This document shows positions 4,454-50,163 of a stretch of DNA of 64,000 nt, piece after piece. The DNA comes from Myxococcota bacterium. Lineage in GTDB: Bacteria > Myxococcota_A > Bradymonadia > UBA7976 > UBA1532. Every line of letters begins with the position of its first letter. Position 1 is the stretch's first letter. The stretch covers positions 32,001-96,000 of the forward strand of contig JAYZEG010000010.1 of NCBI GenBank assembly GCA_036337435.1, given 5' to 3'. Both the position numbers and the translations under genes were made by a program. The notes below the pieces were generated by a model. It searched no databases. It worked only from the letters and a program-made list of their open reading frames with translations, and was not told the origin of the DNA.

Positions 4454-4951
4454 CCCCCAATCCAGAGTCAACACGTCGCAATGCACAGGCGTCTTACTTA
4501 AGCGATCTAAGCACTTAAGACAAATCAAAACAAACCCACAGCAAAACCGCGAATCATGTTTGCCTGATACAGCCTGTAGTGGCCTATATGGCCGACAAAG
4601 AAGGACCTTGGTTCGGTGAGAACGAATCCACACCGAGTTGGATGACCAAGTGGACGTCTGATATACGGCATTCGAACAGCAAGTGACCGGCTTACAGTAT
4701 GCCTGAGTGATTGGGATAAAAACGGAGAGCGATGCAACCCAAAGTCTGCTGGTGACCTCTTTAAGCGTGTACTCACAGGGCGAGGCTGACTGCTTTCAAA
4801 CAGCACCGGCCGCGCGGGTCACGCAAGACTTCGGGCCAGAATCGAACGGGTTAAAGTGGACCGAATGCAGCCAGGCGCTAGCTGTGTGGGCGAGGACAGT
4901 GTATTTGAACAGAGTGGCGCTGAATGCATCAGCAGGGGGTTTAAATCAACG

Positions 4952-5983
4952 ATGAAAAAACGAACCGGGATTCTTCTCACCCAACTCGGCACGCCGAAAG
5001 CGGCGACGGTGGGTGCTGTACGTCCTTACCTTCGGCAATTCTTAAACGACCCCCGAGTGATCGACATTCCAGCGTTGGTCCGACTGGTTTTAGTGAATCT
5101 CGTCATCGTCCCATTTCGCGCGCCGAAATCGACCAAGATTTACAAGGAACTCTGGGAGTATGGTAACGGGCGATCCCCCTTGTTGACCATCACCAAAGCA
5201 CTCACCGAAGAATTAAATTCACGGCTCAACGACGATGATATTTTTGTCCATATGGCAATGCGGTATCAGGAGCCGTCCATGGACTCAGTCCTCGAGTCGA
5301 TGCAACGCGAAAACTATGACAAGATCGTCATCCTGCCCATGTTTCCCCATTATGCATCGTCTAGTTCTGGTTCAGCCATTCAAAGGGCGATGGACATCAT
5401 CGCGAAGTGGTGGGTCATTCCGGAACTCGAAGTTGTCAGCCAATTTTACGATGCCGAGTTCTACATCGATACACTCGTCGAGCAAGCGCAGAAGCATGAT
5501 CTAGACTCCTATGACCACATTATCATGAGCTACCACGGGCTTCCCGACCGCCACGTGGACAAAGTGTATTTGGACAAAGCAGACCTATGCGCACAACATA
5601 ATTGCGAAACGGTGCTCGATGATACAAACAAGTTTTGTTACAAAGCCACCGCCTTTGAGACGTCGCGTCTGATCGCTGAAAAGATGGGACTTGATGACGA
5701 TGATTATACGGTGGCTTTCCAATCGAGATTGGATAAGAAGTGGTTGACACCCTTCAGTGATGAGGTGGTCGAAGAGTTGGCCAAAGCGGGTAAAAAGCGG
5801 CTGCTGGTTTTCTCGCCTGCTTTTGTGGCTGACTGCCTCGAAACAATCATCGAAATCGGGTCGGAGTATCAGGAAATCTTCGAAGAGCACGGCGGTGAGA
5901 AAGTTCAGCTTGTCGCCAGTTGCAACACGGAAGAAACGTGGGTCAGCGGTCTCAGCGAGTTCATTCGCGAACGACGCGCATAG
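4952..5983 (+). CDS. hemH: Ferrochelatase
   Basis: LGTP, AMRYQEP, PMFPHY, SYHGLP, FQSRL, WLTP, FVADCLETI.EI motifs. Confidence 0.95.
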   Translation: MKKRTGILLTQLGTPKAATVGAVRPYLRQFLNDPRVIDIPALVRLVLVNLVIVPFRAPKSTKIYKELWEYGNGRSPLLTITKALTEELNSRLNDDDIFVHMAMRYQEPSMDSVLESMQRENYDKIVILPMFPHYASSSSGSAIQRAMDIIAKWWVIPELEVVSQFYDAEFYIDTLVEQAQKHDLDSYDHIIMSYHGLPDRHVDKVYLDKADLCAQHNCETVLDDTNKFCYKATAFETSRLIAEKMGLDDDDYTVAFQSRLDKKWLTPFSDEVVEELAKAGKKRLLVFSPAFVADCLETIIEIGSEYQEIFEEHGGEKVQLVASCNTEETWVSGLSEFIRERRA

Positions 5984-6943: not shown

Positions 6944-7192
6944 AATTAACTCCTTTGTCTCATCACAGAGTGGCTCGATGGCGTTGAACACCGGCGGGAC
7001 TGGATGTGTTCCCACAATCGGCTTGTTGCCGGAGAAATATCAACGCTGAATTAAACCAGAGTCAACATCTAAACGGCCTCGCTGACCGATTCAGTTCGAC
7101 CTCAACTGACCCAAGTTCGGATCCCTATTGAGCGAAGGCCCATCCGCTGTTAGGCTGCGCCGGTTCCAGACTAAAGAACTTCAGGGGGGATT

Positions 7193-13049: not shown

Positions 13050-13491
13050 ATGCTAAAGCTCCTTCGTTGTAATGACGACAGAGCTCGGTGGGAGGTTACG
13101 GACAACCCGGGTGGACCAATGGGAGTTTTGTTCAGATACGGAAGCATTGAAATCGATGGTCTCGGCTGATGGGGGAACATGAGAAGAAACGGATTCTTAC
13201 AGATGCCGCTTTCAATCAACTCTTCAATAAATGCATCAAGCAATGTTTTCTCCGAAGGTTATCACCAAATCATTGAGGTGGCCCGATCGCCCAGCCCCTC
13301 GGTAATTTCGTCCCGACAAAACAGCAGTTTTACAAATGGTTGACGTCGCTTCGAGCAGGCTGGCGGTCGCGATGAGTGTCCCCAAATTGAACAAACCTAT
13401 GGAACATACCCATTTAAAAGTAATTAATTACAGCTATTTAAAACTTTTCTGAGAAAAAACTACCGTTCGTATGGTTTTTCACAATCTGAAG

Positions 13492-13500
13492 TGATAGTAT
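13492..13500 (+). promoter_or_regulatory. Possible extended -10 promoter for the putative sRNA
   Basis: TGaTAGTAT downstream of an AT-rich tract and just upstream of the first stem-loop. Confidence 0.35.
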
Positions 13501-13506
13501 GCCGCC

Positions 13507-13617
13507 ACATAACGACTCGGACATCTGTTTCGGTTCGTCGCTGCTTTCTCGTACCCCCCCATTCCCCTACACGAGAGAGCGGTTGACCGCTCCCTGCCCC
13601 GGGAGCGGTTTTTTTTT
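13507..13617 (+). ncRNA. Putative ~110-nt sRNA with three stem-loops and C-rich loops
   Basis: SL2 GCTGCTTTCTCGT/ACGAGAGAGCGGT (three G.U pairs, plus strand only) with loop ACCCCCCCATTCCCCTAC; ends in a strong terminator with no credible plus-strand CDS upstream; 5' end inferred. Confidence 0.65.
13586..13617 (+). terminator. Intrinsic terminator
   Basis: ACCGCTCCC-tgcccc-GGGAGCGGT followed by a T run. Confidence 0.85.
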
Positions 13618-13705
13618 CTCAAAACTGCCTTTGGTAGCCATATAGGATGGATAGGCAGGTCGCCCTGAACCGATAACAACTCAGACATCGAGGTGGATAA
13701 AGACG

Positions 13706-22236: not shown

Positions 22237-22510
22237 CTGCGTCCAACATGGCTAGGTCTCGATTAGTCTAGCATGATCTTATCGTCTGCACCCATGTTCA
22301 TTGGACATCCGACTCTATTCTAAACGGATAGCATCATCGGAATGTCACAGGTCAAACGTAGATGACTGACCGACGGGCTGACGCCTCAATTATAACGCCC
22401 GATGAGGGCAATTAATGACTCGGTCTTTTGACCCCACTTGTGTGACCTACTGTCCACATTTATCGGTTCATGACGGCAAGGTTCACCTGAGCTTGGCCTC
22501 CCCGTAAACT

Positions 22511-22526
22511 TGGCATGCGGCTTGCT
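22511..22526 (+). promoter_or_regulatory. Sigma54 -24/-12 promoter
   Basis: TGGCATG-CGGC-TTGCT versus consensus TGGCACG-N4-TTGCW; exact GG-N10-GC spacing. Confidence 0.75.
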
Positions 22527-22536
22527 ATCTCATGGA

Positions 22537-22945
22537 CGCAGGAAAGCAACTTGGGTCCAGAAGGAGGACCACCACGAGGGTCGATGCCGTGACACGTACG
22601 TCAACGCATCGGACAAGAAATTCAGTCTCGGCCTACAAGCTATAGAGGTAGCGGGCATCACGTCCCCCATCCCCCCCAGTGGATGCTCGCTACCCTCATT
22701 TTTACCAGGGTGCGTGACAGTCTGGTTGCTAAATGAGGGTGCTCAATAAGCGAGTCAGACAGGCTAAAGGTAGCGGGCATCACGCCCCCGTCCCCCCAAC
22801 AGGATGCTCGCTACCTCTCATTTTTTTCGGTAGGCAAGCCGTAAACCCATACGCGTTGCGGTTCTTGACATGACCTAAACTCTAGGCAGCGGGTATCCGT
22901 CTCCCCTCCGTCCCCCAAACAGGATACTCGCTGCCTCGCCTCACT
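22537..22945 (+). ncRNA. Putative sigma54-driven structured RNA or tandem sRNA precursor
   Basis: No credible CDS between the promoter and the convergent antiporter gene; 5' hairpins plus three conserved C-loop hairpins; ends inferred. Confidence 0.65.
22647..22936 (+). repeat. Three dispersed copies of a ~50-nt C-rich-loop hairpin (22647-22694, 22768-22816, 22884-22936)
   Basis: GGYAGCGGGYATC-[C-rich loop]-GATRCTCGCTRCC; periods of 122 and 116 bp; unrelated intervening sequence. Confidence 0.95.
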
Positions 22946-22996
22946 TAAAACAAAGCAGCTACCAGGGACCAGACGGGTTGGTCAATACCCCCGAAA

Positions 22997-24178
22997 TTAA
23001 GAGAATAGCGACGACGAAAATGGGGGGATCAGCTTCATGGCAGTTGCCACAATGTACGCAGTCCAGAAAATGTACAAACTGCCGAGGAACCAGCCTCTTC
23101 CCTTACCAACGCTGACAGTTCGAGTCCCATCATCGGCGGTGCCTCGAGGCCCAGTCAGAAAGGTCAACAAGATAATGACGGTTGCGCCAACCAAGATAAT
23201 TCGAAGGTCTTGAACTGCCGCCCCGCTTCCAGCTGTACCGCCCGTCAATGCGATCTCACTGCCGTTGTAGAGGCAGTAGGCCAGCAGGGGTAATCCCAAG
23301 GCAACACAGATGTCGAAAATATTACTCCCAACAGCATTAGACACCGCATCGTCGTAATCTCCCTTCATCGCGTCTTTGTAGGAGATGACGGTATCTGGAA
23401 CGCTGGTTGCCGCAGCCCCCAGGATGACAGCAGTGAAGTATGCTGGTACACCGAGTGCGTCAGCGGAATGGATTACGGCCTCGGCTAAGAAATAGCATGC
23501 ACCGCCGATGGTTGCCGTGGCGCAAATCAGAACGACCCATGCGGAGCCTTTGGTAAACTCGTTGCCGCCATAAATCAGATTATTGTAATCGAAGGTAAGC
23601 AGATTGGCGACAAAGCCCTTATGCTCGTCCTCCTCATCATCATCATCATCGTCGTCGTCATCATCTCCCCCGCCCATGCCACGAAGGAGAACGCCAAAGT
23701 AGACGACATAAATACCGATCAAAGCTGCACCCATCCACCAAGCCAATGCGGTGTTGCCGAGAAATACGATGAGTGCGACCTCAGCTAGGATGAAGAAGAA
23801 TCCGTCTCGCAGAAGCGTACTCTGCCCCAAACTAACGCTGTTAATTACCTCGCCATTTACGCCTTTCGTGGTCACGGCAATAATGCAGACGGCTGGTATG
23901 ACAGCTGCATTGAACACGGCACTGCCCGCGCATGTTGCGATACCAGCGGAGAAGCCATCGGTGTCGTGATAGAGAAAGAGCAGAAATAAGGTGGTGAACA
24001 ATTCCGGTAGAGAACTTGCGATCGCTTCGATGGTCGCGCCTCGAATACCGGGCTTCATCTTATAGACTTTCTTCCCCAAATGGTCTGAAGCCCCCTCAAA
24101 CGAATCGCAGGCGAACTTAATGACATACATCGCGGCACAAACCAGCCCTAAAGACTGCATGAGTTTCGTTACGTCCAA
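22997..24178 (-). CDS. Ca2+/cation antiporter (CaCA, YrbG-like)
   Basis: Alpha repeats ASSLPEL..GSAVFN and ATSVPD..VGSNIFD; poly-Asp central loop. Confidence 0.9.
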   Translation of the reverse strand: MDVTKLMQSLGLVCAAMYVIKFACDSFEGASDHLGKKVYKMKPGIRGATIEAIASSLPELFTTLFLLFLYHDTDGFSAGIATCAGSAVFNAAVIPAVCIIAVTTKGVNGEVINSVSLGQSTLLRDGFFFILAEVALIVFLGNTALAWWMGAALIGIYVVYFGVLLRGMGGGDDDDDDDDDDEEDEHKGFVANLLTFDYNNLIYGGNEFTKGSAWVVLICATATIGGACYFLAEAVIHSADALGVPAYFTAVILGAAATSVPDTVISYKDAMKGDYDDAVSNAVGSNIFDICVALGLPLLAYCLYNGSEIALTGGTAGSGAAVQDLRIILVGATVIILLTFLTGPRGTADDGTRTVSVGKGRGWFLGSLYIFWTAYIVATAMKLIPPFSSSLFS

Positions 24179-47075: not shown

Positions 47076-47226
47076 GGGTTGACCACCCACGTTTTCTCAC
47101 TGCCGGTGAGTGCTGTTCCCTAAGCCAGTAAGGCTCATAATTCTTGCGATTCTCTTGCGCTCTGGTGCGTTCTCATCCAAGCTCAACCAAATAAATCGCT
47201 CAAATCCTTAAAACCTGGGGGGGATC

Positions 47227-47925
47227 ATGCCACTTTCTAAGAAGCTTGCCGCGGAATTTTTTGGCACATTTTGGCTCGTGTTTGGCGGGTGCGGAAGTGC
47301 AGTACTCGCAGCCGGATATCCAACTCTCGGAATCGGGTTTGTTGGTGTGTCATTGGCATTCGGCCTGACGGTATTGACCATGGCCTATGCCGTCGGTCAC
47401 ATTTCAGGCGGGCATTTTAATCCTGCGGTGACCGTCGGTTTATGGGCTGGGGGCCGCCATCCGGCAAAGGAGATTATCCCCTATTGGATCTCACAGGTCG
47501 TTGGTGCCGTTGCAGCCGCAGCCGTCCTATATGTGATCGCAAGTGGCAAAGCGGGCTTCGATCTCGCAGGTGGTTTTGCATCAAATGGATACGGCGAACA
47601 TTCACCCGACAAATATTCGATGACCGCTGCGCTCATCGCAGAAATTGTTCTCACGATGTTTTTCGTCTTGATCATCTTAGGGTCGACAGACAGTCGGGCA
47701 CCTGCGGGCTTCGCACCTATCGCCATTGGTCTCGGTCTGACATTAATCCATCTCATCAGCATTCCTGTCACCAACACATCAGTCAATCCGGCGCGAAGTA
47801 CGGGTCCTGCTCTCTTCGTTGGTGATTGGGCCACGTCCCAACTCTGGCTTTTCTGGGTCGCCCCCTTGGTTGGCGCCGCCATTGGTGGGATTCTCTACAA
47901 AGGCTTGTTCGATAAGGCTGAATGA
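47227..47925 (+). CDS. aqpZ: Aquaporin Z
   Basis: [26 protein letters not shown] and [10 protein letters not shown]. Confidence 0.97.
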
Positions 47926-47955
47926 GCCACTAAAGCGTTGTAGCTCATCACTGAT

Positions 47956-48261
47956 TCACTCGACTCGATCGACAACGATACCCCGGTCTTCGAGGAACCG
48001 TTTTGCTTTCGAACACAGCGGCGCATCTGCGATAAGCAAATGACCTTGGAGCGTTCGCCCTACATGAGACGATGCAACGCTAAGGACTTCAACAAATGCC
48101 TCTGCATCCTTTCTGAGAACCCGAGACTTTCTCTTGATTAAGCGGACACAATTGTCGCCGTATACGTACAGCCCACCTCGACCCTTCAAGCCAATGTCTT
48201 TGAGTTCTAAGTTTGGGTGCTCACCATCGAGGATTATCTGACGTTGTTCTGTTGTAATCAT
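47956..48261 (-). CDS. Hypothetical protein
   Basis: 101-aa ORF with AGGGT upstream; fills the gap between genes. Confidence 0.55.
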   Translation of the reverse strand: MITTEQRQIILDGEHPNLELKDIGLKGRGGLYVYGDNCVRLIKRKSRVLRKDAEAFVEVLSVASSHVGRTLQGHLLIADAPLCSKAKRFLEDRGIVVDRVE

Positions 48262-48476
48262 GGTCTACCCTATTTTGAACATCGGAGATGGTTTTTCACC
48301 AACCATACGGCAAGTTATGATGCATCCCAAGCAACATTGGCACCACATCAATGGTTGGCTGTCTTCAAAACCTGATGGGCACAATTGGGCTCAGCGTGGA
48401 AGAAATAAATAAAAGTTTAGACCGATTCTAACCGTCAGACGTTTATCTGACCGACGCCACAAGCTGGGGGGACCTT

Positions 48477-49241
48477 ATGAATCAAGCGCGGGCTAGAATT
48501 ACATTAATTTCACTTTTTTTCGGAGCATGGTTTGGCGGATGCCAAATGCCAAATGCCTCGGACCGACTCAGCTGGGACAGAATCCATAGTGATATCAACC
48601 AAGACCCTATCCTTACTCATGATGGGATCGATGATGTTCTGAGCAAACTCGACACAAGAAGACTGAGTGAACTTCCCGATGAATATCGACGGACTGCCAA
48701 ATTAGACCAAATAGCTCGGTCCCATTATCGCCATCGCACGTTCTATGTTGTTCGACCGAGCGATCGGCAAAAGTTCGTCGTCGGCCATTTTCGGATCAGA
48801 GATTTTCTGCCTGAAACCAGTGCCGCTGATGCCCATGGTGATGAACAAAGCCCCCATTTTGACTGGCCCGTAGATGCTGAAGAGACCTACCTTCTCATCG
48901 ATTCCAATTTGCTTCATCGGCTCTTAGATCTGATCCTAGAACTCAAGAAGCAAGGACACGACCATGAGGCGATGACCATCTACTACGGCTATAGGCCACC
49001 TGCTCATAACCACAGCATTAATGGAGCAAAGAAAAGCCAGCATTTATTCGGAAAAGCAGTGGATATGTGGGCTGGCGACATCAACCGTGATGGAGAAACA
49101 GACATGGACGACAAAATGATCATCCTCAATATTCTCGAAAGAAAAATTTTCCGTGGGACGGGTGGTGTCGGACGTTATTTGGACGACCCGAGAGCCATTC
49201 ATTTCGACACCCGACGGAAAAAAGGGCGATGGGACAAGTAA
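48477..49241 (+). CDS. Peptidase M15A-like (D-Ala-D-Ala carboxypeptidase family) lipoprotein
   Basis: GYRPPAHN, SQHLFGKAVD, IHFDTR; lipobox FGGC. Confidence 0.85.
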   Translation: MNQARARITLISLFFGAWFGGCQMPNASDRLSWDRIHSDINQDPILTHDGIDDVLSKLDTRRLSELPDEYRRTAKLDQIARSHYRHRTFYVVRPSDRQKFVVGHFRIRDFLPETSAADAHGDEQSPHFDWPVDAEETYLLIDSNLLHRLLDLILELKKQGHDHEAMTIYYGYRPPAHNHSINGAKKSQHLFGKAVDMWAGDINRDGETDMDDKMIILNILERKIFRGTGGVGRYLDDPRAIHFDTRRKKGRWDK

Positions 49242-49415
49242 ATCTCTACACGCTGTCCCGACCCATTAATTGACCATCCGAGGTGTTCTGAGAACATCTC
49301 ATTGAAATCACCAACAGGGGGCACGTAAATCATTGTACTCAAGGCACGATTGCCTCAACGAGTAAAATTCCATCAAGCTTTTCTTTGGCTCGTGTACCAT
49401 GGACCAGGGGGGTAC

Positions 49416-49761
49416 ATGGGGGGTCAACTGGCCGGTCGGGTCAACACAATTTGCCTACACATCATTGGATGGCTGCTGCTCGTTTCCGGGTGCGGGGACA
49501 TCAAAGACCAGCCACGGGCCCCGTCCAGCGACGCAGGAACTCTTGATTACAGTATGGCTGACACATCGCTTGATGTCTCATATACCCCCAATTGATTCGA
49601 CCATTGACCTGACCGGCCTCGATGCCGTGACGGCCGAGGACATGACCGCACTCATTGATGGACCCATTTGAGACAGTATCGAAATCAACTTGGATTCAAC
49701 GGCCCCTGACGATGCAAGACGGCCCCCCGATGCGCTCGATTCAGCGACACTTGGGACCTAG
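49416..49761 (+). pseudogene. Probable decayed lipoprotein gene
   Basis: G-tract RBS then MGGQ...LLLVSGC lipobox; stop at 49595; an Asp-rich linker-like sequence continues in another frame with further stops. Confidence 0.4.
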
Positions 49762-50163
49762 GTGTCGTACTGACACCCGGAATCATCCACAATGAGCTGC
49801 GCCGGGTCGCTGGCATAAGCGGGACTGCTCTCGATACTCAATTCGCCATCTCAGCAGACCATCAAGCACTTCTCTTACGCGCGTGAGTTAACTCAATGCC
49901 TCGGTCTCATCGATTTAACCAAGCAAATCCAAACGTTCAGATTGTGATGCAATTAAACCGAGAGCAATCGGCACGAGGAACAGACCGCAACGACACGCCG
50001 GTCGTGACTGCGCAGCTGTCTAGACGAGCAACAACAGACTGTTTCTCGAGCTGACACGTTGGCGAAATTAAGTCCCTGCACAACAATCAACTCAATTTCG
50101 CCCACCCAAGGGGAACCCACAAGATATGAACGCTCTGCGAAAACTCCAGCGAGACGGCTCGGC

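Follow-up and report, generated by a model that had tools for sequence, protein, structure and literature searches.

C-rich hairpin-loop RNAs and G-run ribosome-binding regions in a Myxococcota bacterium: loop-leader complementarity against a Shine-Dalgarno background

Introduction

Pairing of C-rich RNA loops with G-rich ribosome-binding sites (RBSs) is described as an established mode in excerpts of the four reports that serve as background here (PMC6158497, PMC9410917, PMC4615179, PMC8295292). The cuckoo family, including RSs0680/CcsR1-4 of Rhodobacter and SmelC397/alpha-r14 of Sinorhizobium, comprises RNAs with two to four neighboring hairpins whose loops all display one shared C-rich motif resembling the anti-Shine-Dalgarno (anti-SD) sequence. 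Their stems are highly variable with compensatory changes, sequence conservation is confined to the genus, and RBS occlusion has been proposed (excerpts of PMC4615179). In Firmicutes, RoxS/RsaE and IsrR present duplicated single-stranded C-rich motifs in hairpin loops, pair with G-rich Shine-Dalgarno (SD) regions and block initiation (excerpts of PMC6158497, PMC9410917). The C/U-rich loop of RepG from Helicobacter pylori binds a homopolymeric G-repeat in the tlpB 5' UTR, whose length varies among strains, with a length-dependent outcome (excerpts of PMC8295292).

The window analyzed here, a 64-kb stretch of a Myxococcota genome (G000), contains four putative small RNAs, all with double C-run loops: three hairpins in a tandem array and a second small RNA, the 13.5-kb RNA (Table 1). 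As in the cuckoo RNAs, two to four hairpins with the same motif lie next to each other (three copies in G000, two in G002 and five, as four plus one, in G001, by covariance model), the stems vary by compensatory change and the RNAs are genus-restricted. Duplicated C-rich loop motifs are shared with RoxS/RsaE and IsrR, and complementarity between a C-rich hairpin loop and a leader G tract is shared with RepG. A first-pass annotation had claimed that the G-tract leaders of the window mark a regulon addressed by these RNAs, with the bases flanking the C-runs giving each copy its own targets.

Table 1. Coordinates of the small RNAs, leaders and genes in the window.
Feature	Position	Strand	Description
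nupC leader GGGGGGAUU	7184..7192	+	G6 followed by ATT, then ATG 7193
Second small RNA (13.5-kb RNA)	13540..13619	+	13-bp hairpin 13540-13583, loop ACCCCCCCAUUCCCCUAC
Hairpin RNA copy 1	22647..22694	+	13-bp stem, 22-nt loop ACGUCCCCCAUCCCCCCCAGUG, then CUCAUUUUU
Hairpin RNA copy 2	22768..22816	+	14-bp stem, loop ACGCCCCCGUCCCCCCAACAG, then U7 tract
Hairpin RNA copy 3	22884..22936	+	15-bp stem, loop GUCUCCCCUCCGUCCCCCAAACA containing CCUCC
aqpZ leader CUGGGGGGGAUC	47215..47226	+	G7 run at Shine-Dalgarno position, ATG 47227
Aquaporin gene (MIP family)	47227..47925	+	Pfam
M15 peptidase leader UGGGGGGACCUU	48465..48476	+	G6 run, ATG 48477
Peptidase_M15-like gene	48477..49241	+	Pfam
GGGGGGUAC, then 59-codon ORF	49407..49595	+	Lipobox-like N-terminus; uncertain gene

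Results and Discussion

The hairpin array and the second small RNA

Over the ten array copies of the three genomes, the stem was 96.2% paired, with compensatory changes in 4 of 13 pairs and a covariation score that none of 500 shuffles equalled. Within the window, the copy 3 stem differed from copies 1 and 2 by compensatory changes. The loops overall read C5-8 G/A U C5-7, with a core of C5-8 G U C5-6 conserved in the genus and variable flanks. In G001, the hairpin units were about 27 nt apart. The covariance model detected no array hairpins in 24 genomes from the other genera of the family. On the 3' side of its hairpin, the second small RNA carried an intrinsic terminator (13585-13610) followed by a T-run. 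It was 90% identical in G002; in G001 the stem was changed, the C-rich loop retained and the terminator invariant.

The array was located between two minus-strand genes, encoding a Ser/Thr kinase and a Na/Ca exchanger. A 58-codon ORF at 23037, with leader GGGGGGAT, was discarded as spurious, lying inside the minus-strand exchanger gene. Elsewhere, the host genome encodes Pfam PSD, PSCyt and DUF1552 domains, which would suggest a marine Planctomycetota-type MAG. Metatranscriptome contigs from two libraries of one study covered 22635-22797 (depth 9) and 22840-23032 of the array region; they carry neither strand nor ends, DNA carry-over may contribute, and contigs of the RNA libraries were missing over most of the 11.5 kb examined, gaps being uninformative. 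Promoter scans revealed no sigma-70-like promoter at either RNA locus. Rfam 15 yielded no family at gathering score in the whole window, nothing relevant at E<=10 at the two RNA loci and nothing on the plus strand of 22450-23000.

Pattern scans of genome contigs gave at least 120 matching stretches, and none of the 80 loci scored fitted hairpin model R1, these being chance matches in GC-rich genomes. Among metagenome contigs, one of 49 loci fitted hairpin model R2; since the scores of its two hairpins equal those of G002, it probably derives from the same organism and adds no new diversity. Among papers retrieved on Planctomycetes C-rich small RNAs, no title or abstract opening dealt with such riboregulators. 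The sequence comparisons support the view that the C-rich loops of the window belong to real, conserved, genus-specific small RNAs, giving two well-supported, unannotated families with anti-SD-like C-run loops.

Loop-leader complementarities in the window

The three exact complementarities reported earlier, of 11, 9 and 9 nt, were all present. The copy 1 loop segment ATCCCCCCCAG (22669-22679) has its exact reverse complement CTGGGGGGGAT at 47215-47225, one base before the aqpZ start codon. The copy 2 segment GTCCCCCCA (22790-22798) matches TGGGGGGAC (48465-48473), three bases before the start of the M15 peptidase gene, and GTACCCCCC in the loop of the 13.5-kb RNA (13551-13559) matches GGGGGGTAC (49407-49415), which abuts ATG 49416. 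The G-tract leaders described for nupC, the cNMP-binding gene and hemH were likewise found: besides the nupC run, GGGGG directly adjoins ATG 4453 of the cNMP-binding gene on the minus strand, and AGGGGGT at 4934-4940 precedes ATG 4953 of hemH by 12 nt. Three of the approximately 40 genomic G>=6 leaders fall inside the 64-kb window, together with both RNA loci (binomial P 0.022, calculated post hoc).

The third match concerns a doubtful gene. The ORF at 49416 lies inside about 800 nt that are missing from the syntenic G002 locus, and a homologue search returned only three records, near-identical or partial, with different reading frames among the near-identical ones. This third target lies within an insertion specific to the strain, its reading frame is unstable, and it may not be a genuine gene. 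A candidate minus-strand C-loop hairpin at 49400-49430 was rejected, as the hairpin scan found no stem.

G-runs as probable Shine-Dalgarno variants

A predicted start was found at most 20 nt downstream of 40 of the 876 G>=6 runs of the genome (52.6% GC), vs. 7 of 876 C>=6 runs, the other 836 G-runs lying away from leaders; all leader counts rest on a crude ORF-based gene caller, with some wrong starts (hemH included) and very short genes omitted. Raw counts of G6-N-ATG (152) and C6-N-ATG (143) were swamped by coding sequence, and a cross-genome comparison of these patterns was dropped. The share of runs at leaders rose with length, from 4.1% for G6 to 5.4% for G7 and 8.2% for G8. The spacer peak fell as the run lengthened (6-9 for G4, 4-6 for G5, 4 for G6 and 2-3 for G7), and the 5' edge of the run therefore stays near -10. 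The G-runs thus occupy the sense-strand position of an SD, about 4-12 nt before the start, and canonical SDs occur at the same place in orthologues.

Genome-wide, the top leader motifs were AGGAG and GGAGG. GGGGG (log2 enrichment 2.20, predicted dG -7.8) and GGGGGG (2.75, -8.9) were on or below the trend of enrichment against anti-SD energy. The anti-SD tail used, GGATCACCTCCTTTCT, is the 16S 3' end of a relative from the same family (G016) and may differ from that of this genome, a MAG with no 16S; a partial 16S was present in G002 (model positions 9-902) and none in G001, G003 or G004. The G-runs are complementary to the G016 tail, with pairing that requires G.U wobble. Predicted duplexes with this tail reached -15.3 kcal/mol for the aqpZ leader (rank 42 of 2929), -13.3 for nupC and -9.3 for the M15 peptidase. 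Inspection of the 16S 3' end, a check suggested with the earlier claim, accordingly showed a canonical tail in G016 and G-run usage that follows the anti-SD pairing trend.

Orthologous leaders and selection for targeting

The aqpZ leader carried G7 in G000, G6 in G002 and GGGAG in G001, and canonical cores (GGGAG, GGAGG or AGGAG) in nine further relatives with a match, G>=5 being present in none of the ten relatives other than G002. At the position of the M15 G6 run, G002 has GGGGAGG (GGGGAGGACCU). For ten chosen G>=6-led genes, the run was retained in five of eight assessable orthologues in G002 and one of seven in G001. The nupC G6 persisted in G000, G002 and G001, all RNA-bearing. In G003, which is 89% complete and where the RNA was not found, two of three assessable orthologues had G5/G6 leaders. 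On these alignments, G-runs interconvert with GGAG(G) among orthologues. The aqpZ leaders of G000 (G7-AU) and G002 (G6-AC) each match a loop encoded in the same genome (AUC7 and GUC6, respectively), a single case of co-variation that fits targeting.

These data bear on the possibility that G-run leaders are a selected class of targets of the C-loop RNAs, with no flank code and with run length tuning the outcome. C-runs pair best with G-runs, and the growing leader share from G6 to G8, the retention of nupC G6 in the three RNA-bearing genomes and of five of eight runs in G002, the strain-dependent aqpZ run (G7 vs. G6) and the RepG/tlpB precedent of a length-dependent outcome (excerpts of PMC8295292) are in line with such a class. 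However, anti-SD pairing alone accounts for the G-run enrichment, G001 keeps a G-run in one of seven orthologues despite its five RNA copies, and G003 has such leaders where the RNA was not found. No functional theme was apparent among the 40 genes led by G>=6, which include those for DnaK, PntB, BioB, CrcB, CorC, methylmalonyl-CoA mutase, a ParA-like protein and GH25. We therefore regard a selected class as unlikely. We similarly doubt that the array is a dedicated repressor of G-run-SD mRNAs (for example those of channels and transporters such as aqpZ, nupC, crcB and corC) in which drift of flanks and run length between strains retunes genes. If this were true, the G-run would be both ribosome site and small-RNA tag, in a genome-wide version of RepG/tlpB. 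The claim of a G-tract regulon was not supported, given the anti-SD trend, the GGAG(G) orthologues and the mixed gene functions.

Protein binding, sponges or structural repeats

The hairpins may instead bind or titrate a poly-C- or loop-binding protein, act as a sponge, or be structural or terminator-like repeats, with leader complementarity irrelevant. Near-identical tandem units with the short spacers of G001 are typical of multivalent decoy RNAs, U-tracts end copies 1 and 2, and no target was singled out. Yet conservation centers on the single-stranded C-run core, the classic seed of anti-SD-like small RNAs in the excerpts of PMC4615179 and PMC6158497. Ordinary intrinsic terminators do not have loops as large as the 21-23 nt seen here, the terminator scan called none of the array hairpins, and the array, between minus-strand genes, terminates no plus-strand gene. 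Such roles seem rather improbable.

Flank-inclusive matching

Matches of at least 9 nt to any loop complement occurred in 23 of 137 G>=5 leader runs vs. 482 of 3996 others (odds ratio 1.47, Fisher p 0.11), and matches of at least 11 nt in 2 of 137 vs. 37 of 3996 (p 0.37). Among 3166 leaders, the real loops matched 38 over >=9 nt, 8 over >=10 nt and 2 over >=11 nt, and the corresponding values for decoy loops, with C-runs kept and flanks randomised, were 29.1+/-6.1, 7.5+/-2.8 and 1.7+/-1.2; 41, 229 and 263 of 500 decoys, respectively, equalled or beat the real loops. The flank tests lean slightly toward copy-specific matching, short of significance. Loop complements including the non-G flanks were thus not enriched at starts, the very outcome that the earlier claim had named as its refutation, and the caution that accompanied the original claim, that homopolymer matches arise by chance, was borne out, the 9-11-nt flank-inclusive matches being the number given by decoys.

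Predicted duplex energies over 2929 leaders gave a similar picture. Loop-leader and anti-SD energies were correlated (Spearman 0.55-0.65), duplexes of copy 1 at <=-18 kcal/mol were predicted for 138 of the 2929 leaders, compared with 67 of 2929 coding controls, strong predicted sites numbered in the hundreds, and no single target stood out, with aqpZ ranking 14 for copy 1. A copy-specific flank code, pairing copy 1 with aqpZ, copy 2 with the M15 peptidase and the 13.5-kb RNA with the 49416 ORF within a G-tract regulon, could draw on the three exact matches, this aqpZ rank and the aqpZ leaders varying in step with their own-genome loops, but is very improbable, as flank-inclusive matches are at chance level (37 non-leader G-runs match over at least 11 nt), loop flanks are unconserved in the genus, the G002 M15 leader reads GGGGAGG despite a GUCCCCCC loop, G002 keeps a GUACCCCCC loop without the 49416 region, and the frame of that ORF varies among near-identical records. 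As an addressing principle, a regulon code would have been both new and elegant, but the data lend it no support.

Proposed mechanism

We consider it probable that the G-runs are SD variants and that the RNAs act as regulators resembling the anti-SD, for which any G-rich ribosome site can be a pairing partner. The loop-leader matches are most likely the overlap of two independent, ordinary features, with no copy-specific addressing code. A GGAGG or GGGAG core would have turned into GGGGG(G), pairing with the CCUCC anti-SD being kept through G.U wobble, and GGGGGGGAUC would gain extra pairing with GAUC of the 16S tail. Large loops with two C-runs would provide an anti-SD-like seed complementary to any G-rich ribosome site, with the longest exact matches at G-runs; because any C-run loop complements any G-rich site, flank-inclusive matches of 9-11 nt arise at chance number. 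We infer that the RNAs most likely work by pairing with G-rich ribosome-binding regions so that initiation is blocked there, in the manner of RoxS/RsaE, IsrR and cuckoo/CcsR. For C-runs, a G-run would be a far better pairing partner than GGAGG, and G-run leaders could be a preferred class, thermodynamically favored yet with no dedicated flank-addressed regulon. Of the loop-leader idea, the conserved RNAs and the G-runs in ribosome-binding regions are supported; the regulon and the flank code are not. More generally, complementarity between C-rich loops and G-rich leaders needs to be set against its SD background before a regulon is proposed.

Comparison with known systems

Despite their likeness to the cuckoo RNAs, the array loops read differently from the cuckoo motif CCUCCUCCC, and CCUCC is present in copy 3 only. 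The array matches no Rfam model, its host is not alphaproteobacterial, and its flanks hold the kinase and Na/Ca exchanger genes and no DUF1127 gene. Similarly, no sequence or covariance-model similarity to RoxS/RsaE or IsrR was found (no Rfam match), and the hairpins of the window, unlike RoxS/RsaE, form a tandem array. The C-runs may also discriminate less among targets here than in AT-rich staphylococci, because G-rich stretches are common outside SDs at this GC content, as the 836 non-leader runs illustrate. The tlpB G-repeat bound by RepG counts 6-16 G and sits at one phase-variable locus, ahead of the RBS, whereas the G6-G8 runs here would be the SD itself in about 40 genes, and there is no homology. 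The RNA family of the window is new, and of a known kind, represented by cuckoo/CcsR, RoxS/RsaE and RepG.

Hairpin RNAs and Their Distribution

The window is C10:32001-96000 of the source genome (4.38 Mb in 95 contigs, 52.6% GC, 87% complete). This genome encodes the Pfam domains PSD2–5, PSCyt3 and DUF1552, a set suggestive of Planctomycetota, and the sequencing runs containing its hairpin RNA locus are labeled as marine or seawater metagenomes. The three tandem hairpins lie between two minus-strand genes, one for a Ser/Thr kinase, the other for a Na/Ca exchanger, and each has a stem of 13–15 bp and a loop of 21–23 nt with two C-runs. They were the only covariance model matches in this genome, and among 60 relatives matches occurred within the genus only, in G002 (two tandem copies) and G001 (four tandem copies and one more), with no convincing match in the congener G003 or in the 57 relatives belonging to other genera. 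When the 10 copies were used to build a second model, it found none in 24 genomes of the family's other genera among 150 candidates scored per genome, and no Rfam 15 family matched this locus or that of the 13.5-kb RNA. Across the 10 copies the stem was 96.2% paired, with both sides changed in 4 of 13 pairs; none of 500 shuffles reached the covariation score, and slid controls were only 34–62% paired. The hairpin RNAs are new and restricted to the genus, but of known type.

In G001 (C110:1-403, locus L006) four hairpin units recur with a period of ~105 nt and spacers of only about 27 nt, too short for separate promoters, so that the array is probably a single transcript. In a single study, two metatranscriptome libraries yielded contigs spanning 22635-22797 (depth 9) and 22840-23032, a weak hint of expression, as the contigs show neither strand nor ends and could derive from DNA; a library with contigs over the locus also covers two coding spots. 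Further intergenic hairpins with 9-bp stems and two-C-run loops (e.g., CCCCCACUCCCCC) occur outside the window in the source genome at C12:14533-14575, C45:3069-3112, C71:6175-6211 and C47:28718-28746, and are possible additional C-loop RNAs. One 17-base C run is also present, and at C58:310939-310985, likewise outside the window and close to a contig end, C-rich CCCCGTCCCCCC is followed by a homopolymer of at least 11 G, which may be an assembly-end artefact.

The RNA at 13.5 kb is a small RNA separate from the array. Its G002 counterpart is 90% identical; in G001 the stem differs, while the loop is still C-rich and the terminator invariant. Upstream, within 13380-13640, a block AAAAAACTACCG..CG..TGGTTTT (about 13455-13480) is kept in all three genomes and may be its promoter or operator.

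Small RNA features of the window
Feature	Coordinates	Strand	Structure
Hairpin RNA copy 1	22647-22694	+	
Hairpin RNA copy 2	22768-22816	+	
Hairpin RNA copy 3	22884-22936	+	
Second small RNA	13540-13619		13-bp hairpin, loop ACCCCCCCAUUCCCCUAC, then 10-bp terminator and T-run

G-Runs as Probable Shine-Dalgarno Variants

A crude ORF-based caller supplied 3182 genes, of which 88% start with ATG; some starts, such as that of hemH, are miscalled, so leader counts are approximate. In the hemH start region (4865-4955), Pfam similarity to ferrochelatase sets in only at residue 33 of the longest ORF, and AGGGGGT lies 12 nt before ATG 4953; translation probably starts at 4953 and not at 4865. Pfam supported the names of the aquaporin (MIP), Peptidase_M15, nucleoside transporter, cNMP-binding/pentapeptide protein and ferrochelatase genes.

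The commonest leader motifs were AGGAG (359 of 3169) and GGAGG (290), with GGGGG in 124 and GGGGGG in 39. A predicted start followed within 20 nt for 28/680 G6, 8/147 G7 and 4/49 longer G-runs, compared with 7/680, 0/147 and 0/49 for control C-runs of the same lengths. Longer G-runs had shorter spacers, which keeps the 5' edge near -10. In position and orientation, G-runs are Shine-Dalgarno-like.

No 16S rRNA was found in the source MAG; in the family relative G016 its 3' end is GGATCACCTCCTTTCT. Read by eye, 9 of 10 positions of the aqpZ leader GGGGGGGAUC can pair with this tail, one as a wobble, and the predicted duplex (-15.3 kcal/mol) ranked 42 of 2929. Leader enrichment was log2 2.20 for GGGGG, at a predicted anti-Shine-Dalgarno energy of -7.8 kcal/mol, and 2.75 for GGGGGG at -8.9, against a mean of 2.43 ± 1.06 for the eight hexamers with energies between -9 and -8. 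Since both motifs lie on or below the trend of k-mer enrichment against this energy, the ribosome alone suffices to explain G-run usage.

Orthologous leaders were compared for three window genes and seven further genes led by at least six G, the latter a non-random set picked by eye. The aqpZ leader has G7 in the source genome and G6 in G002 (proteins 96% identical); it is GGGAG in G001 and GGGAG, AGGAG, GGGAGG, AGGGAG or GGAGG in nine other matching relatives, none of these 10 having G5 or longer. The G002 M15 peptidase leader is GGGGAGG; the G001 search for this gene was limited to one locus. Runs of at least six G were kept in 5 of 8 assessable G002 orthologues (aqpZ, nupC, methylmalonyl-CoA mutase, CorC-like and C69) and in 1 of 7 in G001 (nupC), where the others read GGAG, GGGAGGAG, GGACGGAG, GAGG, GGGGA and GGGAG; in G003, the genus member with no convincing RNA match, G6 or G5 stood in 2 of 3 assessable orthologues. 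These counts leave out C70_9121 (unalignable start), C69 in G001 and G003 (37–40% identity), C95 in G003 (start beyond the contig) and C51 in G002 (paralogues only). G-runs and canonical cores thus swap at one position, irrespective of RNA presence.

Loop–Leader Complementarity

The exact matches reported by the first-pass annotation were confirmed. Read in reverse complement, the copy-1 loop sequence ATCCCCCCCAG (22669-22679) is identical to CTGGGGGGGAT (47215-47225), 1 base 5' of the aqpZ ATG (47227); GTCCCCCCA (22790-22798) is complementary to TGGGGGGAC (48465-48473), 3 bases 5' of the M15 peptidase ATG (48477); and GTACCCCCC of the 13.5-kb RNA (13551-13559) is complementary to GGGGGGTAC (49407-49415), abutting ATG 49416. 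This last ORF, of 59 codons, carries a lipobox-like stretch at its N-terminus and matched no Pfam family. About 800 nt around it (about 49232-50020) have no counterpart at the G002 locus, which is syntenic in other respects, yet G002 keeps the GUACCCCCC loop. Only three homologues, near-identical or partial records, were found among 5.8 billion proteins; their N- and C-terminal halves lie in different frames, and one 84-residue version begins at ATG 49416. The region is therefore indel-prone or decaying, its small ORFs falling in differing frames across these records.

From such matches it had been proposed that G-tract leaders mark a regulon, with loop flanks as copy-specific addresses. In its favor, 3 of about 40 leaders with at least six G fall in the window (P = 0.022, post hoc), nupC (G6-ATT before ATG 7193) retains its G6 in each of the three RNA-bearing genomes, in both the source genome and G002 the aqpZ leader matches a loop encoded by that same genome, and C-runs would thermodynamically favor G-runs over GGAGG. 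The copy-specific regulon was nevertheless not supported and failed the refutation test set for it, flank matches being about as frequent at leaders as elsewhere or with decoys. Scoring each run of at least five G by its longest exact match to any of four loop complements, matches of ≥9 nt occurred in 23/137 leader runs and 482/3996 others (odds ratio 1.47, p = 0.11), and of ≥11 nt in 2/137 and 37/3996 (p = 0.37). At ≥9, ≥10 and ≥11 nt the real loops matched 38, 8 and 2 of 3166 leaders; 500 decoy sets, with C-runs kept and remaining positions randomized, averaged 29.1, 7.5 and 1.7, and 41, 229 and 263 of them equaled or exceeded the real loops. The conserved loop core is C5–8GUC5–6, while the flanks used as addresses (the A before the copy-1 C7, the trailing AG, CA and others) vary between copies and genomes.

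Loop–leader and anti-Shine-Dalgarno duplex energies were correlated (rho 0.55–0.65). Copy 1 reached ≤-18 kcal/mol with 138 leaders and 67 coding controls, out of 2929 each, and no discrete set of targets was evident. G-run-led genes were heterogeneous, including DnaK, PntB, acyl-CoA ligase, GH25, BioB, CrcB, CorC, methylmalonyl-CoA mutase, ParA-like ATPase, T2SS-F, TrmB-like, VTC, an OMP and many without family. Several two-G-run leaders ranked above aqpZ. For those on C84 (start 23704, contig reverse-complemented), C30 (26905), C8 (37679) and C82 (7146), all outside the window, the predicted duplexes were the most stable of all, at -30 to -33 kcal/mol; their G-runs are spaced roughly as the two loop C-runs (e.g., GAUGGGGGAGGGGACGA before ATG), and one matches the 13.5-kb loop across 12 nt.

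Relation to Known Systems

The favored interpretation is that the G-runs, as variant Shine-Dalgarno sequences, would meet anti-Shine-Dalgarno-like C-loop small RNAs, which may repress G-rich ribosome sites. The nearest systems to the window RNAs are the cuckoo/CcsR RNAs in architecture (PMC4615179), RoxS/RsaE and IsrR in seed logic (PMC6158497, PMC9410917), and RepG for a loop facing a G-tract (PMC8295292).
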